From positions 72,831 to 136,830 of the forward strand of contig JAFXZI010000012.1 in assembly GCA_017541325.1 (NCBI GenBank): 64,000 nucleotides of DNA, in the 5' to 3' direction. The notes below the pieces were generated by a model that was given only the letters and a program-made list of their open reading frames with translations, was not told the origin of the DNA and did not search any database. The stretch comes from Bacilli bacterium (lineage in GTDB: Bacteria > Bacillota_I > Bacilli_A > RF39 > UBA660). The position numbers were made by a program, and so were the translations under genes. Each line of letters begins with the position of its first letter. Positions within the stretch are counted from its first letter, which is position 1. Below, in pieces: positions 6,123 through 39,936 of this stretch.

Positions 6123-6286
6123 ATTATCACCCACTTTTCTCCACTTTTTACCACTGCTACTATTATAATACATCCTATCCCCCACTTCAAGCAATAATTT
6201 AGCAACCAAAAAAGTGTCTAATTGACACAAAAAAAGAGAAGAGTTTACAACTCCTCTCTTTACAGTAATTTACTTTTTTAAAAATG

Positions 6287-6475
6287 TTACTTATTTAATA
6301 AGTATAATACGATACATCCAATTACTATGATTATAATTCCAATATATAATATTCTAAAAATAATATCTGATTCTCTATCTTCTTTATTAAGTTTTTTCAT
6401 AAGCTCTGGATTTTCTCCAAAGTTATGATTTCCTTCTTCATCTCTTACTAATACTTTAGTTTTATTTTCATCCAT
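6287..6475 (-). CDS. small single-pass membrane protein (hypothetical)
   Basis: 62 aa with a charged N-terminus and a C-terminal TM segment (IIFRILYIGIIIIVIGCIVLYLL). A GAGGGA RBS lies 6 nt upstream of the ATG. Confidence 0.4.
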   Translation of the reverse strand: MDENKTKVLVRDEEGNHNFGENPELMKKLNKEDRESDIIFRILYIGIIIIVIGCIVLYLLNK

Positions 6476-6575
6476 TGCTATCCCTCACTAATTTAATAAT
6501 ATAACTTTATTTATAATAAATCAATTGCATTTATAACTTATTAAGTAATATAATAATTAGATGTTGGAGGATTTT

Positions 6576-7253
6576 ATGAAAAAGTATAATCAATATATCC
6601 TATCTATTTTATTTATTACTTGTGTATTTGTTAATTTAATATATATAGTTAATAGTATTCATTTTCAAAATAAAACAATTAAAAACGAGTATGAAATAAT
6701 GGATGAAAATATAGTCTTCTTTGGTGACTCTATTACATATCAATATAATTTAAAAGAATACTTTAAAGGTCATAATGTAGTAAATAAAGGGATAAATGGA
6801 AATAAAACAGAGGATCTAGTTAGAAGATTAGATGACTTATATTTATATAATCCATCTAAAATATTTATTCTAATTGGTATAAACGATTTAACAGAGAAGT
6901 TAGAAATAGAAGATATTATAAATGACTACTCTATTATTATCAAAAGTATTAAAGAAAATAGAAAATATGCAAAAATATATGTAGAATCAGTATATCCTAT
7001 TAATATGGATGTAATTAAATCTATAAAAAAGGAAAGACATTATCATTTAAATAATGAAACTATATCAGAACTTAATAGTAAAATTAAAGAACTATGTTAT
7101 CAAGAAAATGTTACATATATTAATGTTTATGATAAATTATTAGATGATGAAGGAAAACTAAAAGAAAAATATACAACAGATGGACTTCATATAAGTCATT
7201 TAGGATATTTAAGAATATCTGCAATTTTAAATAAATATATAAAAGGAGATTAA
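6576..7253 (+). CDS. SGNH/GDSL-family hydrolase (lipase/esterase/acylhydrolase)
   Basis: A GGAGG RBS precedes the ATG at 6576. It has an N-terminal TM anchor, a VFFGDSITYQ (GDSx) block, GINGNKTED (Gly/Asn block) and a C-terminal DGLHIS (DxxH). Confidence 0.8.
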   Translation: MKKYNQYILSILFITCVFVNLIYIVNSIHFQNKTIKNEYEIMDENIVFFGDSITYQYNLKEYFKGHNVVNKGINGNKTEDLVRRLDDLYLYNPSKIFILIGINDLTEKLEIEDIINDYSIIIKSIKENRKYAKIYVESVYPINMDVIKSIKKERHYHLNNETISELNSKIKELCYQENVTYINVYDKLLDDEGKLKEKYTTDGLHISHLGYLRISAILNKYIKGD

Positions 7254-7275
7254 ATAATCTCCTTTTTTATTTGGT
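7247..7275. terminator. bidirectional terminator between the GDSL gene and the deaminase gene
   Basis: aaaGGAGATTAaaTAATCTCCtttttta forms a perfect 8-bp stem followed by a T-run. Confidence 0.55.
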
Positions 7276-9930
7276 TTTATTCCCTAAATCACCATCTGTA
7301 GTCTTCGTTTTTGTTTGAACAATTTCTTTAAATAATTCATTAGCTGTATCATTTGTTTCAACTGTTCGACTTAATAAACGTAATACTGGTTCTAAAACAT
7401 CTCGATTTTCTAATATATTTTCAAAATGGGATTCCTTACCAAAAATTAAATTATAATACTTTTCTATAAATCCTTTTATATTATTATTGGAAAAGCTTGG
7501 TTTACTAGGAGGTGCAAGTAAATTATAATCTTCTTCAGTTTCAACAAATCTCTTTATATCTATATTTCTTAATTCGTCTAAACGATTTGATGAATTACTA
7601 TTTATCTCATCTTCTACAAATTGTTCTGTAACAAGTGTTATTTCTATGCTTCCATATACTTTAGATTCAAGTAAAAACAACAATCTTTTAGCAATTGCAA
7701 TAGATTTAATAGAACCTTCATCATATAAGTCACTTGCAATCTTTAAAACTTCCATTGCAATCATACTTTTCTCATCATAAGTTCTATCATGTTCATATCT
7801 AGCTATTCTATCTATTTCTATTCTTACTTTTTCTTTTTCACTACTTGTACCATATAGTCTATCTTCTTCTTTTATTGCTTCTACAAAAGATTTAGGTTTA
7901 GGTCGTGCTGTTCTTTTACGAATCTCTGGTTCAATAGTATCTCTTATACGTTTATAACGAGCAAGAGCTTCAGGAGTAATAGCGCCTACTTTAGTAGCGT
8001 GTTTTGCTAAATAATCTCCTTCACTTTTAATAACCCATCCAAGGCTAGAGTCTCCGTCACTCGAACCTCTATCACTACCTTTATCTCCACTATCTCCTGG
8101 TCCAATATCTCCACCTTTACTACTACCATCGCGATCATCAGCTAAATTTTGTTCTTGAAGAAGAGAAGATAAATACATACCACCGCCATCAGTAGATAAA
8201 ACAACTGGTATACCATTTTCTCTATAAAAATCTAAAGGTACATCTTTTAGAGCTGAAATATTAGATAATGCCATATTAGAACTAATATTAACTTCTACTA
8301 CTGCATGCATTTCTTTTAATAAATCAACAAGTTCTGGACATTCTCTAATATTTACTCCATGGCCAATTCTAATTGTTGGTGGAGGAATTTTAATTGGCTC
8401 ATCTCCAAACATTCCTTCACATTTTTTATTTATTAATTCTATAGCACTTTTTATAGCTAGTAATGTCAACAAAACATTATCAGTAGCTTCAACATATTCT
8501 CCTGCATGTATTCTTAAAACACTATTAGGAAACATATGAAGTACAGGAAGAATCAATGCCATTTTATCTGTAAAAGGGGTAACTTCTAAGGGAGTATCAT
8601 CCTTTTCATTTCCCATTATATCTACACCAACAATTTTACCAGATTTTAAATAAGATAATAATTTATCTGCACTAAATCCATATAATGGATCTGTTGCTTC
8701 TATATCTCCTTGTACTAAAGCATGAAACGCATCAATTGAATCCGTTCTATTTATGCTATATAAAAGATTAAATCTTGGATCATTAGGATATTTAGCTGCT
8801 ATAGCTTGAAGTGTTACAAAATTTGAAAAACTAATTTCAGAATAATGAACACCTTCTCTTTCAAATTTTTCTAAACATCTTTCAAAGTAGTCTAAATATA
8901 CATGTTTTTCTAAATGTTTAATAAGGATTTCAGTTCTTTTAGCATTAATTGCATCTAATATTTCGCTTTTTTTATGTGTTTGTTCATTAGAATTTAAAGG
9001 ATTAAGAATTCCTATTAACTCTTCCTTCCAGTTATTAAAAGGCATATATAAGGCGCTACTAGAATCGCCCTTTTTATATGGCTCTATTTTTTGAAGCATT
9101 AATAACAATAAATTTCTACCCAAAGCAGATATTCTTTTTTCTTCATACATCTTTTTTAATTCTTCAGTAACCTTCTCCTTGAATCCTTCTGTATCACCAG
9201 CAAAATATTGTCTCCCATATTTTCTAAATATTTGTTGAACATCTTTAGCTGCTATTTTTAAATCATCATATGTTTCAAAGAACAATCTGTCAGGATCATC
9301 TTCTGGCATAGAACGAACATGAGCTTCAGCACATTGAGACATTAATTCTCTTCTTTGATTATTTGCTGCTGTTAACTCAGCAAAATGTACTATTTCATCC
9401 CTTTTAATAGACATCGATAATTTAAACTCAGGAGTAATATTGATTCCATATCTTTTTGCAAATACTTCTAATTCATCTGGATTTAAAATTTCTATAAAAT
9501 GCGTATGAAGTTCAGTATGTATTTTTTGTTCACTATCCCATTCTCTTCTTAAAAATCTTTCAATATCAGATTGTCTCTTAATTATTCTTTCATATATAGA
9601 TGGATACTTTTCCTTTATTTCACCTTCAATAGCTTGATAGAATTTTATTAAATCAATATGTCCTGTTCCTTGATATAATTGCCTATAATATTCATGATAG
9701 ACACTTAATACACGAAGTTCTGTTGTAGTTATAGGATTGGTAGTAACTCTACCATTTGAAATTGTAAAAACTACCATATTTCCTATTTTTCCTATTATAT
9801 TTCCTGGATTAACACTATCTATATCAATAAAATCAAGCAAAAAACCTAAATCAGATGATTTAGCTGTCAACTTTTGTGTTATAGGATCATAATATATTAT
9901 GCTTCCTTGATCATTTAATACTATATCCAT
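7267..9930 (-). CDS. large adenosine/AMP deaminase-fold (amidohydrolase) protein, RdrB-like, with a Gly/Ser/Asp-rich linker and a C-terminal ~270-aa domain of unknown function
   Basis: 887 aa. The deaminase motifs appear in canonical order: KIHTELHTHF (HxH), LRIHAGEY (HAGE), RIGHGVNI, EVNISSNMAL (CPxSN-like) and VVLSTDGGGMY (SLNTDDP-like). An insertion of about 330 aa separates HxH from HAGE. An AGGAGG RBS lies 9 nt after the upstream stop. Confidence 0.7.
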   Translation of the reverse strand: MDIVLNDQGSIIYYDPITQKLTAKSSDLGFLLDFIDIDSVNPGNIIGKIGNMVVFTISNGRVTTNPITTTELRVLSVYHEYYRQLYQGTGHIDLIKFYQAIEGEIKEKYPSIYERIIKRQSDIERFLRREWDSEQKIHTELHTHFIEILNPDELEVFAKRYGINITPEFKLSMSIKRDEIVHFAELTAANNQRRELMSQCAEAHVRSMPEDDPDRLFFETYDDLKIAAKDVQQIFRKYGRQYFAGDTEGFKEKVTEELKKMYEEKRISALGRNLLLLMLQKIEPYKKGDSSSALYMPFNNWKEELIGILNPLNSNEQTHKKSEILDAINAKRTEILIKHLEKHVYLDYFERCLEKFEREGVHYSEISFSNFVTLQAIAAKYPNDPRFNLLYSINRTDSIDAFHALVQGDIEATDPLYGFSADKLLSYLKSGKIVGVDIMGNEKDDTPLEVTPFTDKMALILPVLHMFPNSVLRIHAGEYVEATDNVLLTLLAIKSAIELINKKCEGMFGDEPIKIPPPTIRIGHGVNIRECPELVDLLKEMHAVVEVNISSNMALSNISALKDVPLDFYRENGIPVVLSTDGGGMYLSSLLQEQNLADDRDGSSKGGDIGPGDSGDKGSDRGSSDGDSSLGWVIKSEGDYLAKHATKVGAITPEALARYKRIRDTIEPEIRKRTARPKPKSFVEAIKEEDRLYGTSSEKEKVRIEIDRIARYEHDRTYDEKSMIAMEVLKIASDLYDEGSIKSIAIAKRLLFLLESKVYGSIEITLVTEQFVEDEINSNSSNRLDELRNIDIKRFVETEEDYNLLAPPSKPSFSNNNIKGFIEKYYNLIFGKESHFENILENRDVLEPVLRLLSRTVETNDTANELFKEIVQTKTKTTDGDLGNKTK

Positions 9931-9939
9931 AAAAACCTC

Positions 9940-10665
9940 CTATTTAGATTTTGATTCAATTTCTATATTAGTTTCTTGATTATTTATCAATTCATTTCTT
10001 AAACTAATTAATTCTCTTTTTTCCTGAGCTAGTTTACTAGATCTATCTTCTCCGTTATTTGTTGTAGAAGTACTAACTGAAACTTCTCTTTTAGAATCAT
10101 TAATATTAAGAATATCTTCTCTATTTCTTTTCTTATCTGTTAAGTTGAAACTAATATCATACATTTTATGTTTTTTGTTTTTAAACAAATCCTTAAAATT
10201 ACCTAAAAGTATTCTTTCAGATATTAATCTACTCTTTCCTGATTCTTTATATTCTAAATTTTCTATATATCCATTTTTTTGTAATTTTTTAAGTAAACTT
10301 AAAGTTAATATTTGACTTCTTGTATGATATTGCTTTTTAACTCCATCTTTATCCTTTTCATCAAGTTCTACAAACATATTTAAAGCTTCTTCAGTAAATT
10401 GTTTTTGTTTATCACTTTTAGATAATAAAGATAAAAATCTAAGTGGCCTAGATAAAGTGTTTTGATGTATTTTACCATCTCTTGTTACAGAAAATATTGA
10501 ATTCTTAATACTATTTCCTTTAATATCATCTAATAATTTAGATGCAGGAATAAAAGCTACTAAAGTTAGACCTATTCCTAAGGGAATACTTCCTATACCT
10601 ATACCAACTACAGCAAGTGCTAACAATTCAATTGAATGTACTGTTCCATTCAATATATCTTTCAT
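9940..10665 (-). CDS. small membrane protein with an N-terminal TM hairpin and charged helical C-terminus (co-operonic partner of the deaminase)
   Basis: 241 aa. LLALAVVGIGIGSIPLGIGLTLVAFIPA is a Gly-zipper TM hairpin. The remainder is K/E-rich and likely helical. Its stop is 9 nt from the deaminase start. An extended -10 (TGtTATACT) lies upstream. Confidence 0.55.
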   Translation of the reverse strand: MKDILNGTVHSIELLALAVVGIGIGSIPLGIGLTLVAFIPASKLLDDIKGNSIKNSIFSVTRDGKIHQNTLSRPLRFLSLLSKSDKQKQFTEEALNMFVELDEKDKDGVKKQYHTRSQILTLSLLKKLQKNGYIENLEYKESGKSRLISERILLGNFKDLFKNKKHKMYDISFNLTDKKRNREDILNINDSKREVSVSTSTTNNGEDRSSKLAQEKRELISLRNELINNQETNIEIESKSK

Positions 10666-10735: not shown

Positions 10736-10772
10736 ACAAAAAAACCAACTTATCATCGTTGGTTTTCCTGGC
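10736..10772 (-). terminator. rho-independent terminator (minus strand)
   Basis: Minus-strand reading is GGAAAACCAACGATGATAAGTTGGTTTTTTTT: a 9-bp stem, an 8-nt loop and a U-run. It insulates the deaminase operon from upstream transcription. Confidence 0.6.
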
Positions 10773-11179
10773 AAATATGCATATAAATACAATTCATGCA
10801 TTAATTATAAATATATGTTTACACTGAATTAGACTTTGATATGTCAACACCCATCATTTTCTATTTGCTAAAAGTAATGGCTTAATGGGATTAATACTCA
10901 GTCATTTACTATTATTATAACCATCCCCTAGGTTCCTTTGATCAAAACAATCATAATTATAAATAGCTGTATACAAATTACCTCGTATTAACTGTGTACC
11001 ATTAACAACGATGTTGCTTTAACAACATCATTCACTGTTATTATGGTAGATATAATACTATTTGTAATATAGAGTTTCCATTTTTACTTATATACTATTG
11101 CGTATATATGTTTTCGTGGGCTTATATATTTAGGTATATATAGTTTTTATTACGTATATATATCTTTTTACTATTCTAT

Positions 11180-11262
11180 GGTTTTTCCATTATATAGTTT
11201 TGTGTTTTCATATTTCTATTACTAGCACTTTTTCCATTTTCACATTTCTGTTACTAGTGGTT
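11180..11262. repeat. imperfect direct repeats in an AT-rich non-coding spacer
   Basis: ttttcatatttctattactagcac (11205-11228) and ttttcacatttctgttactagtgg (11237-11260) match at 20 of 24 positions. Each is preceded by tttttccatt. TATATAT-rich tracts lie just upstream. Confidence 0.4.
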
Positions 11263-11378
11263 GTATTACATCTATTCTAATAACAATTACAATATACTAC
11301 ATTATTTTTATAATTACTAGTCTTTTTTTAAAATTTGTAAAACTTTACGTCAATTACAAAAAAAGAAATAACTATTTG

Positions 11379-11630
11379 TTATTTCTTTTCCCATATTTTT
11401 CTTATTAATCCTAATGATAATGTTGATAATGTAAAACCTATTACAGGAACTAAAGAACTAAAATAAATATTATTATATTTACTTATTACATATGAATATA
11501 TAAGTACTATTATGTAAGTAAGTATCATTATACATATTCTTCTAGTCCAACTAGTTTCCCATTTTTTATCTAGTTCTACTCTTTTATTTCTTGCTTCAAT
11601 ATTATCAATTCTTTTTTCTAAATCTTTCAT
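11379..11630 (-). CDS. small membrane protein (hypothetical), translationally coupled to thrS
   Basis: Its ATG overlaps the thrS TGA as ATGA. It has a coiled-coil N-terminus and two TM segments. 83 aa. Confidence 0.4.
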
Positions 11631-13390
11631 TTATTTAATTCTCTATTTTTTATTTCTTTATTAATTCTATTTATAAATTCATCTACAGGTATTGTAGTAG
11701 TTTCTTTTTCTCCAAACAATCTAAATGATACTGTATTAGATTCTTTTTCTTTATCTCCTAAAATTAATGTATATGGAATCTTCATAGTTTGAGATTCTCT
11801 CATCTTATAAGATAGTTTTTCATCTCTACTATCTAATTTTACACGTACATCTTCTTTTAATAACTTTTCATATATTTCTTTTGCATATTCCATATGATAT
11901 TCATTATTAACTGGAATTACATTTACTTGAACTGGTGAAAGCCATAAAGGAAGTGCTCCTTTAGTTTCTTCTAATATAAATGCAGTAAATCTATCGAATG
12001 TACCAAATATTGCTCTATGTATTACTACAGGAGTTTGTTTTTCTCCATTGGAATCAATATAACTTAAATCAAATCTTCTAGGAAGTAGAAAATCTAATTG
12101 ACAAGTAGAAAGTGTTACTTCAGGTCCAACAGCTGGTTTTACTTCTACATCTAGTTTTGGTCCATAGAATGCTGCTTCTCCTTCTGCTTCTACATAATCG
12201 CATCCATATTCATCTAATACTTCCCTTAATTTGTTTTCTGCAGTATTCCACATTTCATCGTCATCAAAATATTTTTCTTTATCATTCTTATCTCTTAAAG
12301 ATAGTCTAAACTTATAATCATTAAGTCCAAAATCTTTATAGACATCAAGTATTAATCCAACTACTTTTTTAAATTCTTCTCCTATTTGATCAGGTCTTAC
12401 AAATAGATGGGCATCATTTTGACACATACATCTAACTCTTTCAAGTCCTTTTACTGCTCCACTAGCTTCATATCTAAAATCAGCAGCAAACTCACCTATT
12501 CTAATTGGAAGTTCACGATAAGAATGTAATTCATTAGCATATATTAACATATGATGAGGACAGTTCATTGGACGTAGTACAAACTCTTCTTCATCTACTT
12601 TCATTGATGGAAACATATTTTCTTTATAATGATCCCAGTGTCCTGAAGTTTTATATAAATCAACTGTTCCTACACATGGAGTATATACATGTAGATATCC
12701 CATTTTTCTTTCTTTATCATAAATATAATTTTCAAGTTGTTTTCTAATAATTGCTCCATTAGGTAACCATAAAGGCATTCCTTTACCTACTAAATCATGT
12801 ACCATAAATATAGATAAATCTTTACCTATTTTTCTATGATCTCTTGCTTTAGCTTCTTCTATTTCTTTTAAGTGTGCTTCTAAGTCTTCTGGATTATCAT
12901 AACAAACTCCATATATTCTTTGAAGCATTTTGTTTTTGGAGTCACCCTTCCAATAAGCACCAGATACTTTTAATAATTTGAAATTCTTAAGTAATTTAGT
13001 GTTTTCAACGTGTGGTCCACGACATAAATCAGTAAAATCTCCTTGAGTGTAACAACTTATTACATTTTCATTTTCATCCATTCTACTAATTAAATCTATT
13101 TTATATGGATCATCTTTAAACATAGATAGTGCATCACTCTTAGATATTTCATGTCTAATTATATTTTTAGCATCTTTACTACATTTTTTCATTTCTCTTT
13201 CTATACGTTCTAAATCTTCTTCTTTTATAACATTATCACCTAAATCAATGTCATAATAGAACCCATCTTCTATTACAGGTCCTACCCAGAATTTAGCATC
13301 TGGATATAAATGTTTTACTGCTTGTGCAAGTAAGTGAGCACAAGAATGATTTAATTTATTTAATTCTTCATTTTCTTTTATATTAATCAT
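11627..13390 (-). CDS. thrS: threonine--tRNA ligase
   Basis: Carries the editing-domain [10 protein letters not shown] motif, class II aaRS core motifs and a C-terminal anticodon-binding domain. Start corrected to MINIK (GGAGG RBS). No N-terminal TGS domain is present. Confidence 0.9.
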
Positions 13391-13835
13391 AATTACCTCC
13401 ATTAAATTTTATTACTTTACTTCTTCCTTTTTCAAAATCTATTACTTTTGGAACACTTTCTTCATAATCTAAATAACTATTAAAAAAATCTACATATTTT
13501 GCTCTAGCTGTTTCATATACTGTTGGATTTTGATTCTTTAATAATTCTACTATTGCATCAATTGAAGATACTTCTTCCAAATATTCACTATATATATCTG
13601 GTACAGGATTAAATGCAATTACTGGATTAAAACTATTTAGTTTTTTAGCTATTAAGTATTCAAATTCATCTTTTTTCTTTCTATCATTTTCACTTTTCCA
13701 AAAATTGATTATTAACCATCCCGGAAAGGTTGTAACTTTTTCAGCTAAATAGTCTTCTTTACCTAAGGTTCGTTTAGACGACCTTAAAACACGAACTGCA
13801 GTACACATATTACTTACGCTTCGTTCAAGTTCCAT
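13383..13835 (-). CDS. hypothetical protein encoded between the T-box leader and thrS
   Basis: 150 aa from the ATG at 13835, which has an AAAGGAGTG RBS placed immediately after the T-box terminator. It ends 6 nt before the thrS ATG. I found no recognisable motifs. Confidence 0.5.
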
Positions 13836-13854
13836 ACAATCACTCCTTTCCAAA

Positions 13855-14094: not shown

Positions 14095-15954
14095 CTATTC
14101 TTTATTTACTCTACTATAATTTCTATTAACATATTCAATTGTCTTAACACGATGGTTCATATATTTTGCCATTTCTCGCATATTATCTTCATATTCACTT
14201 TGTTGCTCTTGATCTACTTCTCCAAAATAAAATGCATGTAGTGCTAGAGTTGCTAAAGAGTCTCCAAATAGAATTAAAGGAGATGTAACACGAGAATAAT
14301 GAATACCACCTAAAGCTTGATGAACTTGATTTGGATTAGTTGTATAAAATGATCTTCCTGGATTATTACTTAATTGTTTATATATTCCTCTTGTATCCTT
14401 ATCAGGAAGACTTTCAGGAGAGATTTTACCTAAATTATTAAAGTAAGCTTCTCTTTGACCATTGGCAATATATAAGAATGTTAATCCATTTTTAAACATA
14501 TAATTTGCAGTAGTCATATTAGTAAGCATCATAGAATATTGAACTAAACTACTACTTTCATTTTCTTCTGGAGATAATAACTCATCTTCTACATCTTCTG
14601 TTGTATCAAATCTCTTTCTTAATATATTATAAATATCAACTAAAGTTGAAACAGTAGAATCTATATCTGTAGAATATGTAGAAGATGTAATAAGTTCATC
14701 AGCTCCATGAAAAGTAAGATGTTGAGTAATATCTACCACTTCTTTTTTTATTCTAAAATGATCTAACATTACATTACCATCTTGATCAATTTCTAAGTAA
14801 TAACTAAGTGTTAAATTCTTTTTATCTTCTCTAAGACTAGCTAGGTCATATACTTCTTTTGGATATATATATATTGGTTTTCTACCTCCATATACAGTTC
14901 TTGTTCTCTTAAATGCTTCATCTATTAATTCTTTATATGGTCCTAGAAAACTCATTGGATCAGAAATATGTACTCCAAGTAAAAAATTACCATTAGATAG
15001 TTTTTTAGCTGATAATCCATCGTCTAATACAACTGCACCTTCTCCATCAATTGTAATAATGCATTCATCATTATGATCTCTTTTTTCTACTTCTTCAAAA
15101 TAGCTATTTAACAATCCGTTTTTTACAATAAATGTAACATCATACGAAAAATCTCTATGAATATCAGTAGCTAATTCCATATCTTCTTCTGATATTTTTG
15201 AATCACGTTGCATTATATTATCAACTATTCTATTTACCCAAACCATATAATCCTTAACATGAGTATCATAGTCTTTTGATATAGCTCTATCTACAATTAT
15301 TAAACATTTTTGTTGAACTTCCGGAGTCAAAATATATTTACTTTCACTTGAAACTAATAATAGATTTAATATCTCATCCAAAAACAATAAATTATTACGA
15401 TTCTTAATACTATTTGTATTTTTAAACTCTGCTAGTTCTTCCATATACTTCTTACATATTTCTTCTGCAATACTAGTATCATCTGCACTAACAGAATTAA
15501 CTACATCTGGATAATCATTTATCATCCTTTTAATTAAACCTAAGTCTCTCGAGTTAAATACTACAAATCTTAATAATTTATACATTTGATTACTGTCTTT
15601 AAGACGTCTCTTGCTCTGTATAAGTCCAAGTTCTGATAAAGAGTTATGAATTTTTTTTATTTCTAAGTAATTAGGATCATCATTTTTTATATAGTCTGGT
15701 TTATTACTAAAAATATCTTCTATTTGAGCAATAATCGAACTAATTCTTTTATCAATAGTTGCTCTTTCTTTTTTTGTTGTTATTCTTCTATAAATAATTA
15801 TTTCATCTAAAAGGAGAGAAAGTCCTACACTATCTCCACTATATTTAAATTTATTAACTCCCTTTTTGAATTCTCTAATTATTTCATTTATTCTTCTAGA
15901 AGAATTGCGACTATGTTTTTGATTAATTGACTCTAACACTTCTAAATAATCCAT
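14095..15954 (-). CDS. RNB-domain exoribonuclease (RNase II/R family)
   Basis: ITIDGEGAVVLDDGLS fits the TIDxxxxxDxDDA motif I. LLGVHISDPMSF resembles the LGVHIADVSHF block of RNase R. I saw no obvious N-terminal cold-shock domain or C-terminal S1 domain. It starts 2 nt after the dnaI stop. Confidence 0.6.
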   Translation of the reverse strand: MDYLEVLESINQKHSRNSSRRINEIIREFKKGVNKFKYSGDSVGLSLLLDEIIIYRRITTKKERATIDKRISSIIAQIEDIFSNKPDYIKNDDPNYLEIKKIHNSLSELGLIQSKRRLKDSNQMYKLLRFVVFNSRDLGLIKRMINDYPDVVNSVSADDTSIAEEICKKYMEELAEFKNTNSIKNRNNLLFLDEILNLLLVSSESKYILTPEVQQKCLIIVDRAISKDYDTHVKDYMVWVNRIVDNIMQRDSKISEEDMELATDIHRDFSYDVTFIVKNGLLNSYFEEVEKRDHNDECIITIDGEGAVVLDDGLSAKKLSNGNFLLGVHISDPMSFLGPYKELIDEAFKRTRTVYGGRKPIYIYPKEVYDLASLREDKKNLTLSYYLEIDQDGNVMLDHFRIKKEVVDITQHLTFHGADELITSSTYSTDIDSTVSTLVDIYNILRKRFDTTEDVEDELLSPEENESSSLVQYSMMLTNMTTANYMFKNGLTFLYIANGQREAYFNNLGKISPESLPDKDTRGIYKQLSNNPGRSFYTTNPNQVHQALGGIHYSRVTSPLILFGDSLATLALHAFYFGEVDQEQQSEYEDNMREMAKYMNHRVKTIEYVNRNYSRVNKE

Positions 15955-19222: not shown

Positions 19223-20860
19223 TTAATCTTTACTCTTTTTTAATACTTCTATGATAGATGAAATCATTTGTTTTTTACGAGAAACTATATCTTCTAAGAA
19301 AATACCTTCATAAGCATCTACATCAAATGCTTCACTAATAATATCACAAGAATTTGTATTAAATATTACATAAGAACCATTTCTAATAATATCAGTAACA
19401 AATAAACAAGCGATTCCATATCCTTCAGCGTTTTCCATTTTATTAAGTTCAGATACATATTTATCTATATCACGAGATACTTCATCATAATTAGTAGTAA
19501 ATATTTGACCAATACCAATGTTGATATTTTCTGAATTAAACTTCTTGAAGTCTTGATAAATTATTTCATCTGCATCTTTTCCTTCAAGAGATGAACCAAC
19601 TTTAAACATTTCAAGTCCATAATTATAGTAATCAATACCAAGTCTTTTTGATAAAGATGAAACGGCTTCTACATCAAGAGATGTAGTAGTAGGACTCTTT
19701 AATAGTAGTGTATCTGATAATATTGCAGATAATAGTAATCCTGCTATTTTATCATCGAATTCTACAAATCTTTCTTTATATAAATTATAAATGATTGTAC
19801 AAGTAGATCCAACCGACATATTTCTAAAGTTTATAGGAGAATTAGTTGCAATAGTACCCAATTTATGGTGATCTATTATTTCTACTATTTGAGCTTCTTC
19901 TATACCTTCAGCAGATTGTTCTTTTTCGTTATGATCAACTAAAACAACTTTCTTTTTAGATAATTCTTCTGCTCTAGTATATTCAATTAATCCAAGACAT
20001 TCTCCTTTATTATTTACAACTGGATAATTAGTATGTTTCTCTCTTTTAGCAATAATATGAAAGTCTGTTAAATAATCACTATCTTTAAATGTTACAGGAT
20101 TAGATAATTCATTAATTATTTCTACATAATTTGCTAAAACTAATAAATTACTAACTTCAAAACTACCAAAACTAGTTGCAATAATATTTACTTTATTTTT
20201 TCTAGCTATTTCTAAATGTTCTTCTTTAATTTGACTATCTCCAACTAATATTATTAGTTTAACTCCAGATTCAACTGCATACTCTAAAATACTATGTCTA
20301 TCCCCTATTACTAAAATATCATCAGATTTTAAAGATACATCATTAAGAAATGTTGTACTTCTATATGTAGCAGTAATTACATTTCCTTCTATTTCTTGAT
20401 CAAACTTTAATATTTCTTTTCCATTTACCGTATCTAGAACGTTATCATAAGATGTTATTAAATGTTTTCTTTCACTTTCAATCATTTCACGAGCAATACC
20501 TTTTAACGTAACTAAACCTAATAATTTGTTTTTATTAGATTTATCTACTAATGGAATTCCTGATGCTGATAAATTACTCATTAAATCATAAGCATTTTTA
20601 ATTGATTCATGTTTATCTACAAAAAATCTTTTATGATATGATAAATCTCTAATTTGAACTTTAACATCATTTAAGTATCTAGGTGCTTCAACTCCAAATC
20701 TATCTAATACATATTTAGTTTCATTATTAATAGCACTTAAAGCACATGGAATAGCTTTAATATTCTTTTTTGTACTATTTAAAAAATTAGCCATAGCAAT
20801 CGCAGCACATATAGAATCAGTATCTGGTTTTCTATGTCCAAAAACATAAATATTTTCCAT
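19223..20860 (-). CDS. CBS-domain-containing family II (DHH/DHHA2, Mn-dependent) inorganic pyrophosphatase
   Basis: The N-terminus has the DHH motif FGHRKPDTDS. An internal CBS pair is present, and the C-terminus carries DHHA2 (DHNE...GxGxxF...). Start corrected to MENIYVFGH (AAGGGGTG RBS). Confidence 0.8.
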   Translation of the reverse strand: MENIYVFGHRKPDTDSICAAIAMANFLNSTKKNIKAIPCALSAINNETKYVLDRFGVEAPRYLNDVKVQIRDLSYHKRFFVDKHESIKNAYDLMSNLSASGIPLVDKSNKNKLLGLVTLKGIAREMIESERKHLITSYDNVLDTVNGKEILKFDQEIEGNVITATYRSTTFLNDVSLKSDDILVIGDRHSILEYAVESGVKLIILVGDSQIKEEHLEIARKNKVNIIATSFGSFEVSNLLVLANYVEIINELSNPVTFKDSDYLTDFHIIAKREKHTNYPVVNNKGECLGLIEYTRAEELSKKKVVLVDHNEKEQSAEGIEEAQIVEIIDHHKLGTIATNSPINFRNMSVGSTCTIIYNLYKERFVEFDDKIAGLLLSAILSDTLLLKSPTTTSLDVEAVSSLSKRLGIDYYNYGLEMFKVGSSLEGKDADEIIYQDFKKFNSENINIGIGQIFTTNYDEVSRDIDKYVSELNKMENAEGYGIACLFVTDIIRNGSYVIFNTNSCDIISEAFDVDAYEGIFLEDIVSRKKQMISSIIEVLKKSKD

Positions 20861-20968
20861 GAACATTCACCCCTTCGTTTAGCACATTATATCATAACAT
20901 TTAAAAAAAAGGAATTACTTCCTTCTATATCTAGTAACTAATAAAATAAAGAATAAGAAAATTCATTC

Positions 20969-25467: not shown

Positions 25468-28400
25468 CTATCCCTTTAATTCTTCCAATTTTTTATCTAA
25501 TACTGAATACAAATATATATGAGTATCTTTACCTAATTTATGTTCAATATATTCTTTATATCCATTTAATTGTTTTAAGTAATTATCATCATCTATATTC
25601 TTTAATTTATAATCTATAATCATTACTTTATCTTTATATACAAGAAGTAAATCTATTATACCATGTAATTCTATATTATCTTTTTCATAAATAAATTCGT
25701 ACTCTTTATATATATCACAAGTATTAAAATCAATTCCACTTTCTACAAAAGATTTAATATAATCTACATATTCTTCATCTATATATGAATAATCTGGATT
25801 TTTAAAATCAAACAATTCAAATAAGTAATGAATATAAGTACCAAATTGCATTTTAACAAAAACGTCTTCATCAAGCACTTCATGACTTCCTTTAGAAAAG
25901 TGTTTATTACTAATAAAATTATTATCTATATTAATTTCAATATTTTCTATTACTTCATCAGACTTCTTTATCAATTTTTTAAAGTCAACTTTTTTAATTA
26001 AATTGTAATCTCTACTTATACCTAAGCTCTCTATATCAATATCTTTTATATAAGGACTAACAGTATAATAAATACTCTTTAATATTGAATTGAATGAACT
26101 ATATTTTATTCTTATATCATCTGGTACTAACTCATTAAATGATTCATTTTCTTCTATTGAAGTTACTAAAATCATCTTTTCTTTAGCACGTGTTAAAGCT
26201 ACATAAAATAATCTAATTTTTTCACTTATTTCATCAATTAAGAAATCATCTTTATATAAAGTCTTATATATAGTTGTACCTATTCCATCTTTATAATATG
26301 GAAGAATCATTCCATATTTATTACTAAATATAAATCTAGAATTTAAATCTTTCATATTAAACTTTCCATAGAAGCCACTAAAGTAACAGATATTAAATTC
26401 AAGTCCTTTAGATTTATGAATAGACATAATTTTAACACTATCTTCTCTACTATCATTAAAGTTACATTCTAAAGACATATTATCTCCATTCAAATTATCT
26501 AGGAAGTCTCTAAATTCTTCTAAAGTACATCCAAGCACTTCATATTGTTTACTTAGTTTTAGAACAGATTCAAGTCTAATATCTAATTTATATGTATCTC
26601 CAACAGTAATACTTTTTTCATAGAAATTAAATGAATCAATTATTAATTCAATTATTTTAGAAATAGATAATACTTCAATATCAGTACATAAATATTCTAT
26701 TTGTTTATATAATTCTGATTCTTTATAATTATCTTTTACAAAATATTCAAATATTTCTTCGTCATCTAATCTATATAAATAACTTCTTAGAATTGAAATA
26801 AAAGCATATTTAAATTCAATATCTATTTTTCCTTTAATTACTGAAATCATTAAAGTAATAATATTTTTAATTATATTTATTTCATTATCTTGAGTAATAT
26901 CTGTACTAGTATATTTTTCAATTGGTATATTTAAATATTCAAATATTTTTTTATAAAGATCAAAGTCTTTAGTACGATGAATCAATATACAAAAATCACT
27001 ATATTTAGCATCATGAATTAATCCTGTATCTTTATCAAATATAGGATATTTATTTTTAACTTTAGTCTCTATATCACGAGCAATAGTAAATATTTCAATT
27101 TCTTCTTTAGTAAATCCACACTCTTTATCATAAATATAATTTAATATATCCATGTTATAGTCTTCATTTGTTTTTCCTGCTTCATTATAAGAAGTATTTC
27201 CAAATATCATTTGATGAGATTCTTTGTATTCAGCTCCACCTATATTATTATCCATTACTGGATTAAATATTAGATTGATATTATCAAGAACTTCACTACG
27301 ACTACGGAAATTCTTTAAAAGATCTATCTTATATCCATTGTCATTATTAGAATATTTATCATATTTATTTTTAAAGATATTAGGGTTAGCATTACGGAAA
27401 CGATATATTGCTTGTTTAATATCTCCAACCATATATACATTATTATTCTCTATTAAATTAATAAATATTTCTTGTAGATCAGATGTATCTTGATACTCAT
27501 CTATCATTATTTCTTTAAATCCATATTTGAGAGTATCTCTAACATCAGGATTATCTTTTACTACTTTAATAGCTAGTTTAGCAATATCAATAAATTCAAA
27601 TGTATTATTATATTTTTTATAATCCCAAATCATTGAATCAAGTTCTCTTATTATATCAATAAAAACAATTGCATAACTTTTAGTACTTAAAATAGTACTC
27701 TTTATTTCTTCTTCACTATTAAATGAAATATATTTAATTAAATCTGCTTTTTGAGTTGTAATAGATTCTTTTAAAGTTTTTAATTCTTCAGAACTATTTC
27801 TTGGAAGATTTGGAATTTTTTCTTTAAGAGCAGTTAACTTTTCTTCTAAAGTTTTTGCTCTAGAATATTTATTTATAACTATTTCTAAATCTTCATAAAA
27901 TTTATTTTCTGCAAGAGATAATAATTCTTGTAAATCATTAAATAAATGATTAAATTTACTATTTACTTTATCTAAATACTCGTTAATTCTACTATTAATA
28001 TAGTTATCATTATAATAAGTATCTATATAATTATTTAAGTATTCCTCTTTTTCTGGAAGTAAATCCATTTTACTAGATAGATTTAAAATAGCATCTTTTA
28101 TTTCTACATCATCTTTAACACAAAAATCAGATATTAATTTTAAAAAGTCTTCTGTAGGATTTTCATAATATTTATCAAAAATAATATCTAAGTATTCTCT
28201 TCTTTTATTATCAATAATATTTTTATCAGCTACTGTTAGATTCTTATCTACATCTAGTAAATAATAATACTTTTTTACCATAGAAAGACTAAAACTATCA
28301 AAAGTAGTTACATATGATGCATCTATTAAATCGAGTTGATTAGAAAGAGCAGGTTCGCTTTTAATTTTCTTTCTAATTCTTTCTTTCATTTCAAAAGCTG

Positions 28401-28584
28401 CAGCATTAGTAAATGTTAATATTAACATTTCAGAAATATTAGTTCCATCTTTTAATTTTCTTAATACTCTTTCAGATAAAACAGCAGTTTTACCAGAACC
28501 AGCTCCAGCTGATACGATTATATTAGTTCCTTCTTTATTAATCGCATCCATTTGTTCTTCTGTCCATCTAGGCATCTTCTTCAC
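25468..28584 (-). CDS. addA: ATP-dependent helicase/nuclease subunit A (AddA/RexA, UvrD-like)
   Basis: The N-terminus has a UvrD helicase Walker A (SAGAGSGKTAV), and helicase motifs run throughout. It lies downstream of addB with overlap. At 1038 aa it is shorter than Bacillus AddA. Confidence 0.8.
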   Translation of the reverse strand: MKKMPRWTEEQMDAINKEGTNIIVSAGAGSGKTAVLSERVLRKLKDGTNISEMLILTFTNAAAFEMKERIRKKIKSEPALSNQLDLIDASYVTTFDSFSLSMVKKYYYLLDVDKNLTVADKNIIDNKRREYLDIIFDKYYENPTEDFLKLISDFCVKDDVEIKDAILNLSSKMDLLPEKEEYLNNYIDTYYNDNYINSRINEYLDKVNSKFNHLFNDLQELLSLAENKFYEDLEIVINKYSRAKTLEEKLTALKEKIPNLPRNSSEELKTLKESITTQKADLIKYISFNSEEEIKSTILSTKSYAIVFIDIIRELDSMIWDYKKYNNTFEFIDIAKLAIKVVKDNPDVRDTLKYGFKEIMIDEYQDTSDLQEIFINLIENNNVYMVGDIKQAIYRFRNANPNIFKNKYDKYSNNDNGYKIDLLKNFRSRSEVLDNINLIFNPVMDNNIGGAEYKESHQMIFGNTSYNEAGKTNEDYNMDILNYIYDKECGFTKEEIEIFTIARDIETKVKNKYPIFDKDTGLIHDAKYSDFCILIHRTKDFDLYKKIFEYLNIPIEKYTSTDITQDNEINIIKNIITLMISVIKGKIDIEFKYAFISILRSYLYRLDDEEIFEYFVKDNYKESELYKQIEYLCTDIEVLSISKIIELIIDSFNFYEKSITVGDTYKLDIRLESVLKLSKQYEVLGCTLEEFRDFLDNLNGDNMSLECNFNDSREDSVKIMSIHKSKGLEFNICYFSGFYGKFNMKDLNSRFIFSNKYGMILPYYKDGIGTTIYKTLYKDDFLIDEISEKIRLFYVALTRAKEKMILVTSIEENESFNELVPDDIRIKYSSFNSILKSIYYTVSPYIKDIDIESLGISRDYNLIKKVDFKKLIKKSDEVIENIEINIDNNFISNKHFSKGSHEVLDEDVFVKMQFGTYIHYLFELFDFKNPDYSYIDEEYVDYIKSFVESGIDFNTCDIYKEYEFIYEKDNIELHGIIDLLLVYKDKVMIIDYKLKNIDDDNYLKQLNGYKEYIEHKLGKDTHIYLYSVLDKKLEELKG

Positions 28585-30919
28585 CTCCTAGATAAGATAA
28601 ATCTTTATATTTTTTAAGTGAAACTATATCTTCATTTTTTCTAAAACAAATATCTCGATACTTACAATATTCACATCCAACTAAATCATCACCTATTTGT
28701 TTAGGATTAATATTAAATTCTCCTTTTAAGATGTTATCTCTATTTTCATTTATTTTATTATCGATAATATCTACCAAAGTATTTAACTCTTCATCATTAA
28801 TAATTTTAGTATATCCATTAAATCTTCCATCTTTAGTAAGTTTCATACTTTTAATATAAATACTATCTTCATATGTTGGATCAAATATTTGGACACGATC
28901 TATATCACTACTACTATATCCAACTAATTTTAAATTATTTTCTTTTTGTTCTTCAAGAGTTTTTTCTTCATCTATTTTTTGTTCAGTACTTAAGACTTTT
29001 TGTAAGTACATTCCAACAAATTTAGGTTCCTTTACTAAATTAGAATTAACTACTAAATACCAATATATTGGAAGTTGCATATCTATACCATATATAACAC
29101 TTCCTAAATTTATATCTGGATTTCCTGTTTTATAATCAATTAATGCAACTAAATCATTTTTATACATTAATTTATCTATAATACCTGTAAATCTAACTTC
29201 TATATTATTAATACTTTTATCAATAGAAATTTTTTGTTCTAACATGTGTTTAGTAAGTCCTGTATCTTTATGTAATTTCTTAACAAAATTAATAATAAAA
29301 GATAATTCTTTTTTTAGTTTAATTAAAAGTATTTCTTCTTTAGGACTTAAAATATATTGTTTTAAATATTTATTCCATTCACTATCTAAATCAAAATTAT
29401 CATCAAGACATATACTTAATAAATAATGAAATAGATTTCCTATCTTTTGTTGAAATGATTCCTCATATTTATTAATTTTTAAAATATTTTCCAAATAATA
29501 TCTAAATTGACATTTATTATAATTATTAATAGAGGAATAGGACAGTACTAATTTATTGTTTAATAGTTTTAATAATAAATCAGAATCTATTCCAGTAAAA
29601 GAATTATTATATGTAGAATAATCTATTTTGTAGTTTGAATAATACTTAGATAATTCTTTACTATTAATTCCAAATTTTACTAAATCATCTATATATCTAC
29701 TTAATTTAATTTTTGAATATAAAGTAGAATAACTATTGGTAAATATTTCTTTCTCAGCTAAATAAATATTATTTTCCGCTATTAAATTAGATTGATAATA
29801 TTTTTCTTCTAAATGATTTAAAGGATAAGACATATATAAGTATTTAGTTTTATTAATAAAATCAATTACTTCTTCTTTAGCAGTCTTATTCTTAATTGTA
29901 GAGTTCTCCATTCCAATTAAATCTTTTTCAGCGTCTTCTAAATAATCTTCATTTTTATAAATAGTTGGTAATTCTCCTTGATTAAATCCAATTAAGAAAA
30001 TATATTCATCATTAAATGTATAGTTCTTAAAAGGTAATAATTCTACTTTATTTTGTAAATTTATACCAATACTAGTATTTAATATTTTATTTGTTACTAA
30101 TTCTAAAATGTTTTTAAACGAATATTTATTAAGATATTTATTATAGGTATTACATATATTTAGAATAATACCATTAATTGATTGATCGGATTCACTAGTA
30201 TATTTATTAGAAATAAATTTATATGCATCATTAAAAGATTTAGATGTTTTTAACTTGTCTAAAAAATCTATTCCTATCATTGTAGAATATACAGAATATC
30301 CTGTATCACTAACTGGTATATTATAAAATTTTGATAACTTATTTATTACATTTGAATAACGATCACTATAATTAATAATTTTAATCTTATTTATATCTAT
30401 TCCACTCGTGATTAAATCTCCTATTTTATGGAATACATAATCTATTTCTTCTTCAATAGTAGGAAATTCAAGAACTGTATTATTATCATTTTTATCTTTA
30501 TTTTCTTTTATAGTATATGAGTATTTATCCAATCCTTTTTTTAAAAGATTATCTAATTTATAATCTATTATTTCTATATCTTTATCTTTTAAAAATATAT
30601 TATATAAAGGATTTATTATTAAAAGATTATTATTTAATAACTCATTTTTTATATTATATAGAGTATCTATTTTAGAATTATTTTTAACTTCATCTATATA
30701 ATACATACAGTTAATTATTTCTTTAGCATTAGTTTCTCTAATTACATAATTATCCATTAAATAAAGAATTGCCTCTTCATTATAATCAAAGAAAACATTT
30801 TTTATAAATTCTTCACGAGTAATTATTTTAAGATCATTAATTTCATTAGAATTTTCTTTTTCTTTTAATAATCTTTTCTTTATATAATTAGGAGCGATTA
30901 TAAGTTTTGTTTTAGTCAT
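28568..30919 (-). CDS. addB: ATP-dependent helicase/nuclease subunit B (AddB/RexB)
   Basis: The C-terminal nuclease/Fe-S module has a Cys cluster (CQFRYY...GCEYCKYRDICF). Its position 5' of addA matches the usual arrangement. At 783 aa it is a compact form. Confidence 0.7.
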   Translation of the reverse strand: MTKTKLIIAPNYIKKRLLKEKENSNEINDLKIITREEFIKNVFFDYNEEAILYLMDNYVIRETNAKEIINCMYYIDEVKNNSKIDTLYNIKNELLNNNLLIINPLYNIFLKDKDIEIIDYKLDNLLKKGLDKYSYTIKENKDKNDNNTVLEFPTIEEEIDYVFHKIGDLITSGIDINKIKIINYSDRYSNVINKLSKFYNIPVSDTGYSVYSTMIGIDFLDKLKTSKSFNDAYKFISNKYTSESDQSINGIILNICNTYNKYLNKYSFKNILELVTNKILNTSIGINLQNKVELLPFKNYTFNDEYIFLIGFNQGELPTIYKNEDYLEDAEKDLIGMENSTIKNKTAKEEVIDFINKTKYLYMSYPLNHLEEKYYQSNLIAENNIYLAEKEIFTNSYSTLYSKIKLSRYIDDLVKFGINSKELSKYYSNYKIDYSTYNNSFTGIDSDLLLKLLNNKLVLSYSSINNYNKCQFRYYLENILKINKYEESFQQKIGNLFHYLLSICLDDNFDLDSEWNKYLKQYILSPKEEILLIKLKKELSFIINFVKKLHKDTGLTKHMLEQKISIDKSINNIEVRFTGIIDKLMYKNDLVALIDYKTGNPDINLGSVIYGIDMQLPIYWYLVVNSNLVKEPKFVGMYLQKVLSTEQKIDEEKTLEEQKENNLKLVGYSSSDIDRVQIFDPTYEDSIYIKSMKLTKDGRFNGYTKIINDEELNTLVDIIDNKINENRDNILKGEFNINPKQIGDDLVGCEYCKYRDICFRKNEDIVSLKKYKDLSYLGGEEDA

Positions 30920-39866: not shown

Positions 39867-39936
39867 AGTATCACTCCTATTCTCACTAATTAAAATTATA
39901 CAATTAGATAGGAAAAATGTAAATAAAAGGACCAAA

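Follow-up and report, generated by a model that had tools for sequence, protein, structure and literature searches.

The sequence examined here is a 64-kb window of a Bacilli genome (contig JAFXZI010000012.1), and coordinates are window positions unless another locus is named. In the interval between thrS and mraZ/rsmH, the window carries two genes in tandem, separated by a junction of 9 nt: one for ADA887, a multi-domain protein of the adenosine deaminase (ADA) superfamily, and, upstream of it, one for TM241, a membrane-anchored protein (Table 1). In a preliminary description of this DNA, the pair was taken for a two-gene operon in which a small protein with two transmembrane (TM) helices accompanies a deaminase resembling RdrB from RADAR, an anti-phage system, without the RdrA-type ATPase. 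The two open reading frames (ORFs; 887 and 241 amino acids, aa) and the five motifs of the ADA/AMP deaminase (AMPD) family, in order, are present exactly as claimed there. ADA887 is identical in sequence to the NCBI entry 'MAG: hypothetical protein IKQ35_04660 [Bacilli bacterium]' (MAG, metagenome-assembled genome).

The assignment of ADA887 to the deaminases is not a chance motif match, because Pfam A_deaminase (PF00962) matches at 50.8 bits (cut-off 27), with only residues 521-602 aligning, and Plasmodium ADA is matched at 5e-8 in a PDB sequence search. The protein has a (beta/alpha)8 amidohydrolase barrel resembling solved ADAs, and its motifs, ELHTHF (residues 140-145), RIHAGEY (473-479), RIGHG (521-525), EVNISSN (546-552) and LSTDGGG (578-584), hold a complete metal-binding and catalytic set (H142, H144, H475, E478, H524 and D581). 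Searches of the PDB by sequence and by profile recover ADA, ADAL and AMPD, as well as Cad1 for the wider clade described below. The fold and its intact catalytic set are thus borne out by Pfam, the PDB match and residue alignment, and the oversized architecture noted earlier is confirmed as well, with an N-terminal domain, a helical insertion, a linker and a C-terminal domain (C-domain). The second His of HxH and the His of HAGE are 331 residues apart; in mouse ADA the same distance is about 197 residues. Approximately 255 residues follow the barrel. The N-terminal domain is found in relatives of 480 aa too, and the long-helix insertion is longer in ADA887 than in its relatives of about 720 aa. 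Another insert, of 25 conserved residues (C504..FG..WG..PPP), lies between H475 and H524, before RIGHG. Glycine, serine and aspartate make up 74% of residues 600-633, where the confidence score of the AlphaFold2 (AF2) model, the predicted local distance difference test (pLDDT), is below 50; the tail of 107 residues also has low pLDDT and is without a homolog in the deaminase family.

Table 1. Features of the TM241-ADA887 locus in window positions; residue numbers refer to ADA887.
Feature	Position	Strand	Basis or remark
ADA887 gene, 887 aa, multi-domain ADA-superfamily protein	7267-9930	-	ORF list
TM241 gene, 241 aa, membrane-anchored protein	9940-10665	-	ORF list
AGGAGG ribosome-binding site of ADA887	9936-9941	-	Overlapped by the TAG stop of TM241; ATG after 5 nt
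N-terminal domain, family-specific, residues 1-135, beta-sheet and helices, conserved LNDQG start	9526-9930	-	Alignment, AF2 secondary structure
ADA-type TIM barrel, residues 136-597, G582 in place of the canonical second Asp	8140-9525	-	Pfam, PDB, alignment, AF2
Long-helix insertion between barrel beta-1 and beta-2, residues ~183-358	8857-9384	-	Alignment, AF2
G/S/D-rich linker, predicted disordered, residues 598-632	8035-8139	-	Composition, AF2
Helical C-domain, residues 633-780, motif ..AK(M/R)xLFLLE..	7591-8034	-	hmmsearch, hhalign to a separate small gene
Species-specific C-terminal tail, residues 781-887, and stop codon	7267-7590	-	Alignment, AF2
Bidirectional intrinsic terminator	7241-7266		Common to ADA887 and the convergent GDSL-lipase gene
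GDSL lipase gene	6561-7253	+	Convergent with ADA887
Variable slot: ADA887, GDSL lipase, 62-aa ORF	6276-9939		Without nucleotide counterpart in locus L008

The replacement of the second Asp in the last motif had been offered as a reason why the activity of ADA887 might be altered or lost. An exhaustive profile search recovered 554 cluster representatives related to the deaminase family at E<=1e-3 (231 at E<=1e-10). Because nearly all aligned members of this clade have T/S-D-G, not D-D, after the metal-binding Asp, DGGG is a hallmark of a large uncurated clade (hereafter the T-D-G clade) and not a private defect of ADA887. The clade signature E(I/F)NxSSN stands in place of the canonical EVCPxSN, and HxH, HxGE, GH and D are almost universally intact, which argues for catalysis. 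No curated model exists for the clade: all NCBIfam matches remain under their cut-offs, ADA887 scoring 45.4 bits vs 216.55 for the Add equivalog TIGR01430 and falling far under the cut-off of all PRK09358 models. In the sources searched, the wider clade is without curated names, the labels reading only 'hypothetical'.

The replacement also bears on the substrate. By motif alignment, the equivalents of Asp19 and Asp296 (mouse numbering) in ADA887 are I146 and G582. A study of TaqCad1 reported that ATP-specific Cad1 has N in place of mouse D296 and G in place of D19, that it converts ATP to ITP and is without adenosine deaminase activity, and that restoring both aspartates abolishes the activity on ATP (PMC12669630). 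As both adenosine-gripping aspartates are replaced in ADA887 too, by analogy an adenine nucleotide with a 5'-phosphate (AMP, ATP or dATP) is a likelier substrate than adenosine. The earlier suspicion can therefore be kept as regards the replacement itself and an altered substrate chemistry, and given up as regards an inactivating defect of this one protein.

From its sequence, ADA887 is probably an active metal-dependent hydrolytic C6-deaminase. We lean, with some reserve, towards regarding it as a divergent member of a lineage-restricted multi-domain family within the T-D-G clade, probably active on adenine nucleotides, and TM241 as unrelated to it. In such a scheme, ADA887 would catalyze the metal-dependent hydrolytic deamination of a 5'-phosphorylated adenine nucleotide at C6, and the C-domain, either fused or separately encoded, would regulate or assemble the deaminase. 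The physiological role would be the conversion or control of nucleotide pools, given that the partners that keep recurring (pyrophosphatase, guanylate kinase, NUDIX, thymidine kinase) are all nucleotide enzymes.

Shorter relatives (480-540 aa) are without the C-domain, and in split operons at four independent loci (L018 5722-7982, L032 71-2357, L035 7001-9421 and L047 6449-9447) the deaminase is followed by two small genes, each overlapping or abutting the preceding gene. The first of them, translationally coupled, is a homolog of the fused C-domain (hmmsearch E 1e-5 to 3e-3; hhalign probability 91%, E 9e-7, 88 columns); the second matches nothing, with an hhalign probability <1% against the fused proteins and the ADA887 tail. 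We infer that the C-domain is a regulatory or assembly subunit. Judged by eye, another relative (P0041, 886 aa) appears to contain two tandem C-domains, paralleling the pair of small genes in the split operons. As for nucleotide enzymes, the operon of L047 ends in a NUDIX hydrolase gene, a thymidine kinase gene lies upstream of the deaminase in L033, and among 55 distant clade members NUDIX fusions occur in three and a nucleoside deoxyribosyltransferase-like fusion in one. A bolder extension, speculative and on present evidence improbable, would make the T-D-G clade a set of unrecognised regulated ATP/AMP deaminases gated by the helical subunit. Together with NUDIX and CBS-pyrophosphatase enzymes, they would run ATP -> ITP -> IMP + PPi -> 2 Pi, either for purine rebalancing or as a Cad1-like growth-arrest or antiviral switch in reduced-genome gut Bacilli.

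Among 5.8 billion protein clusters, 26 relatives of ADA887 are detectable, all at <=36% identity and most of 707-765 aa. The family is confined to one small group of Bacilli, uncultured and from gut and rumen, and is chromosomally inherited. Relatives of about 720 aa lie directly upstream of a family-II pyrophosphatase (DHH-CBS-DRTGG-DHHA2), with both genes on one strand, at every locus with enough downstream sequence, approximately 17 loci of which some are redundant (L001-L003, L005, L006; L011-L017; L038-L045). The gaps between the two genes are 3, 11 and 18 nt in L001, L003 and L005 and about 1 kb in CAG:1000-type genomes. Upstream there is a MurD-like ligase or GH25 gene, and downstream follow guanylate kinase (gmk) and addB/addA. 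The records from which these loci come bear the names of uncultured Erysipelotrichaceae, 'Tenericutes' or Bacilli MAGs, and of Clostridium sp. CAG:1000. More distant large relatives (P0025 and P0026) have chromosomal, metabolic contexts. A defence-island setting of the family is not supported, the family being syntenic with pyrophosphatase, gmk and addAB at these loci; a housekeeping nucleotide context across the lineage largely holds for the family, not for this species.

The exact ADA887 sequence occurs on 18 contigs, always in the same context, and therefore represents one species. The window genome has an equivalent pyrophosphatase (19223-20866), preceded by gyrA, and addBA (25468-30919), with ADA887 and the pyrophosphatase about 9 kb apart. 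Its pyrophosphatase is 42-47% and its AddB 36-38% identical to the copies of the other genomes, which among themselves share 58-65% (pyrophosphatase) and 55% (AddB). ADA887 is 26-35% identical to the family members; because the pyrophosphatase and AddB of the window are likewise divergent, this identity fits an early-branching ortholog that was relocated. Purifying selection acts on the deaminase gene, with ratios of nonsynonymous to synonymous substitution (dN/dS) of 0.25 and 0.11 in two pairs. A mobile-element origin of the family was considered and ruled out: no relatives were found in IMG/VR viral contigs, and tblastn against phages and plasmids gave only weak partial matches to the ADA domain (26% identity over 18% of the query).

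TM241 follows a different distribution. It comprises an N-terminal hydrophobic segment, a conserved alpha/beta domain (residues 43-185), a variable linker and a C-terminal helix. In place of the proposed Gly-zipper hairpin of two TM helices there is a single hydrophobic stretch, some 31 residues long (11-41) and interrupted at S-I-P-L-G, which AF2 models as a helical hairpin only at a low pLDDT of 44-53. No Pfam, PADLOC, SLATT or RdrD match and no informative fold match was obtained for TM241, and the suggested likeness to SLATT/RdrD proteins is not supported. Its homologs form nine clusters at 48-63% identity, and the gene downstream of them is Acyl_transf_3 (L008, L020), VanY (L019) or a reverse-strand gene (L010); a deaminase adjoins in none of these four contexts, and TM241 is present at none of the approximately 25 loci of the deaminase family. 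The TM241-ADA887 pair is fixed in this species (18 contigs) and occurs in no other. TM241 is conserved independently of ADA887 and is a resident of the thrS-mraZ interval, because the locus L008 keeps it in the syntenic place without a deaminase.

These distributions decide against the two-gene module of the preliminary description, a RADAR-like system in which TM241 would replace RdrA as a membrane effector or pore, and which we now judge highly improbable. Such a module would account for the 9-nt junction with its coupled ribosome-binding site and shared terminator, for the fixation of the exact pair on all 18 contigs, and for the broadly RdrB-like size and catalytic positions of ADA887 (H142/H144/H475/E478/H524). 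Against these stand its confinement to one species, the other neighbours of TM241 homologs in all four contexts and the deaminase loci without TM241. Moreover, no RdrB, RdrA, RdrD or SLATT profile is matched, no RdrA-like ATPase lies within about 10 kb, an equivalent of RdrB insertion 3 is missing, and in a congeneric genome TM241 stands in the syntenic position beside an acyltransferase instead. Nor is the pair recognizable as a defence or mobile module, since it is found in one species only and the family is absent from viral contigs, with only weak matches in phages and plasmids. Co-transcription of the two genes would thus be positional and their adjacency accidental, and together they probably form no functional two-gene system. 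Of the promoter and terminator ascribed to the pair, the terminator (7241-7266) is present; a dedicated promoter is not demonstrable, as 40 consensus matches compare with 43 expected by chance in a scan that is uninformative at 27% GC.

The genes within about 10 kb of the pair are thrS, RNB, DnaI-like, prepilin peptidase, pilC, pyrophosphatase, gyrA/B, mraZ, rsmH, a penicillin-binding protein (PBP) and the GDSL lipase. L008 comes from a congeneric genome (identity to the window 96% for ThrS, 94% for RsmH, 94% for MraZ, 90% for the DnaI-like protein and 86% for the PBP) and shares with the window the order prepilin peptidase, dnaI, RNB, thrS, 83-aa gene, spacer, TM241, mraZ, rsmH, ftsL, PBP. 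In the slot occupied here by ADA887, L008 carries an Acyl_transf_3 gene (748 aa) and a 136-aa gene (10850-13507), which upholds the earlier view of an accessory-type position that varies between close relatives. A 1005-aa AAA_11/AAA_12 helicase is inserted before TM241 (L008 6833-9850). In L020, the thrS-mraZ interval contains an acyltransferase fragment, and among congeneric genomes the interval is a hotspot of gene turnover. On the other side of thrS, the RNB-domain ribonuclease (14095-15954) is 49% and the 156-aa ORF before thrS (13383-13853) 44% identical to L008, with flanking genes at 86-97%; the two are locally hyper-divergent or replaced genes. L001 and L008, which stem from one sample with similar coverage, were considered as parts of one genome and kept apart, since L008 genes share 86-97% identity with the window and the pyrophosphatase and AddB of L001 only 37-42%.

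Several observations weigh against the reading of ADA887 as an active nucleotide deaminase of a housekeeping lineage family. The AF2 model has moderate confidence (mean pLDDT 62.6), and the D19 equivalence derives from motif alignment (ELHVHLDG vs ELHTHFIE), not structural superposition, with an acidic residue, E147, one position on. Family members share 29-42% identity vs 58-65% for the adjacent pyrophosphatase, a faster divergence that is the pattern of conflict genes too. The slot that holds ADA887 in this species is variable, and L035, a split relative, adjoins phage-integrase fragments and two DNA methyltransferases. Fast divergence, such neighbourhoods and the catalytic decay of one sublineage described below would also suit a single-protein anti-phage or abortive-infection effector, namely an autoinhibited ATP/dATP deaminase whose C-domain or insert senses infection and unleashes a flood of ITP/dITP, with TM241 uninvolved. 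The D19/D296 equivalents, substituted as in ATP-specific Cad1 (PMC12669630), and the large regulatory additions with a separable C-domain, a toxin-and-regulator-like arrangement, point in the same direction. We nevertheless hold an effector of this kind to be unlikely. Synteny with pyrophosphatase, gmk and addAB at approximately 17 loci across deep divergence is atypical for defence genes, and L018, L047, L029 and L030 have housekeeping surroundings. Viral contigs hold no relatives, and phage and plasmid matches are weak and partial; furthermore, a sensor domain of known type is absent, and members with degenerate sites are still intact ORFs.

The catalytic decay itself speaks against the preferred reading in another way. 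Ten of the 24 aligned members (P0015-P0024) are without the second His of the HxH motif, which reads HTY/HTN/HTK in them, and also without the catalytic Glu (HAD/HAE/HAN...); some have lost the RIGHG His or the Asp as well. They are full-length and keep the highly conserved non-catalytic motifs (PVLHxxPNSVLRIHA, CxxLFGxxWGxxPPPxIRI and EYSxISFSN), and P0019 still adjoins the pyrophosphatase. These ten proteins are probable pseudoenzymes. As they lack catalytic residues and yet remain full-length and syntenic, catalysis may not be the conserved function, and the function of the family may be partly non-catalytic. L003 8001-10268 encodes a member of this sublineage. Carried to its end, this argument would give the family the role of a nucleotide-binding regulator or scaffold, for instance a partner of the adenine-nucleotide-regulated CBS-pyrophosphatase, and would make the catalytic residues of ADA887 ancestral leftovers; the tight coupling of deaminase and pyrophosphatase genes, with gaps of 3-18 nt, would agree with it. 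However, no catalytic residue is missing from ADA887 or from any of the eight GTDB species representatives, ADA887 is about 9 kb away from the pyrophosphatase, and the catalytic motifs are near-universal in the T-D-G clade, so that a purely non-catalytic role appears doubtful, more so than the effector.

Further observations concern the rest of the window. The 700-bp spacer upstream of TM241 does bear the repeats described earlier, but its 3' part is a highly conserved structured element of about 315 nt. This non-coding element (10738-11052, minus strand; AACCAAC...GTTGGTTTTTTT) ends in an intrinsic terminator and is >90% identical in L008 and L020, where the adjacent TM241 protein is 63% identical. 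It folds better than 100 of 100 shuffles (z -3.1), its first hairpin shows compensatory changes, and no Rfam, tRNA or tmRNA match was obtained for it (Rfam, ARAGORN). A function as TM241 leader was ruled out, as a helicase gene stands between the two in L008; located downstream of thrS and the 83-aa gene, the element is a candidate for a novel small RNA. Repeated units of the form CTAGTAAnAGAAATnTGAAAA, of which L008 has one extra 38-nt copy, occur in the 5' half of the spacer (~11100-11330, minus strand); a repeat finder run on the window gives just short AT-rich two-copy families. Many Firmicutes have a T-box leader upstream of thrS; no Rfam family reaches the gathering threshold in the whole 64-kb window, the sequence upstream of thrS included. 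At a distance of about 27 kb from the ADA887 locus, a 1004-aa SMC-like ATPase (36921-39935, minus strand) matches PADLOC mad3 at 1.4e-70; in total three window ORFs match mad3 and two match mad8 (best 25 of 85 families), and they may belong to SbcC/Rad50-type machinery with a housekeeping role or to a defence locus of the MADS-like type.

If the reading of ADA887 as a nucleotide deaminase is correct, Bacteria would possess a family of adenine-nucleotide deaminases outside CRISPR and RADAR with a regulatory subunit of its own, and the loss of both adenosine-binding aspartates would be a clade-wide signature, not an oddity of Cad1. A sequence rule separating nucleotide- from nucleoside-specific ADA enzymes would follow, by which several hundred orphan clusters could be annotated. 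The decayed sublineage would offer a natural case of the transition from enzyme to pseudoenzyme. For genome mining, the locus is a caution, as a large deaminase behind a small membrane protein resembles a defence module and yet the adjacency appears accidental.

Among known systems, RADAR is the one to which ADA887 had been likened. PADLOC-DB includes RdrB models, and no RdrB match was obtained for ADA887 or six relatives at E<=1, nor for 55 distant large relatives at E<=1e-3; PDB searches gave no RdrB chain at E<=10. An RdrA-like AAA+ ATPase gene is absent within about 10 kb of ADA887, in accordance with the earlier remark on the pair. The window-wide ORF scan for defence genes yielded generic ATPase and helicase matches (AddA as GajB, the SMC-like ATPase as mad3), with no RdrA among the best 25 of 85 families listed, which leaves room for a weak RdrA match distant from the locus. 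RdrB has an obligatory RdrA partner, forms a dodecameric shell, uses H152/H154/H498/E501/H530 for catalysis and contains three insertions, the third after the last catalytic His (PMC9994260). In ADA887, an equivalent of this insertion 3 is absent, the distance from H524 to D581 being 57 residues, as in canonical ADA. Both are ADA-fold proteins of about 90 kDa with an N-terminal extension, a core-splitting insertion and catalytic residues at similar positions. ADA887 differs in having no RdrB-specific sequence, profile or fold-rank signal, no RdrA, no insertion after the last catalytic His and an extra C-terminal domain, and in belonging to a chromosomal syntenic family, not a mobile defence operon. 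Membership in RADAR, and with it the label of an RdrB-like defence protein, is therefore rejected on the missing RdrB match, RdrA neighbour and insertion 3; a similar chemistry, nucleotide deamination, may still apply.

The sole PADLOC match of ADA887 is to the ADA part of the CARF_ADA (Cad1) model (positions 473-552 of 605). Cad1/CAAD, the CARF-fused ATP deaminase of type III CRISPR systems, combines a CARF domain with cyclic-oligoadenylate signalling, and ADA887 is without either (no CARF Pfam match); at the D296 position, Cad1 has N and ADA887 G. Compared with canonical ADA (Add/ADA1, Plasmodium ADA; PF00962, TIGR01430), ADA887 is 2.5x larger and adds the N-terminal domain, a 175-residue helical insert, the 25-residue insert between H475 and H524 and the C-domain, with the D19/D296 equivalents replaced. 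ADAL/MAPDA (N6-methyl-AMP deaminase) and the AMP deaminases are also among the closest known systems. The ADA-NUDIX fusions of the T-D-G clade (e.g., P0027; JGI name 'ADP-ribose pyrophosphatase YjhB') share with ADA887 the T-D-G and EINxSSN-type signature and differ in their accessory domains. The novelty of ADA887 thus resides in its architecture and its clade signature, and not in a new kind of system.

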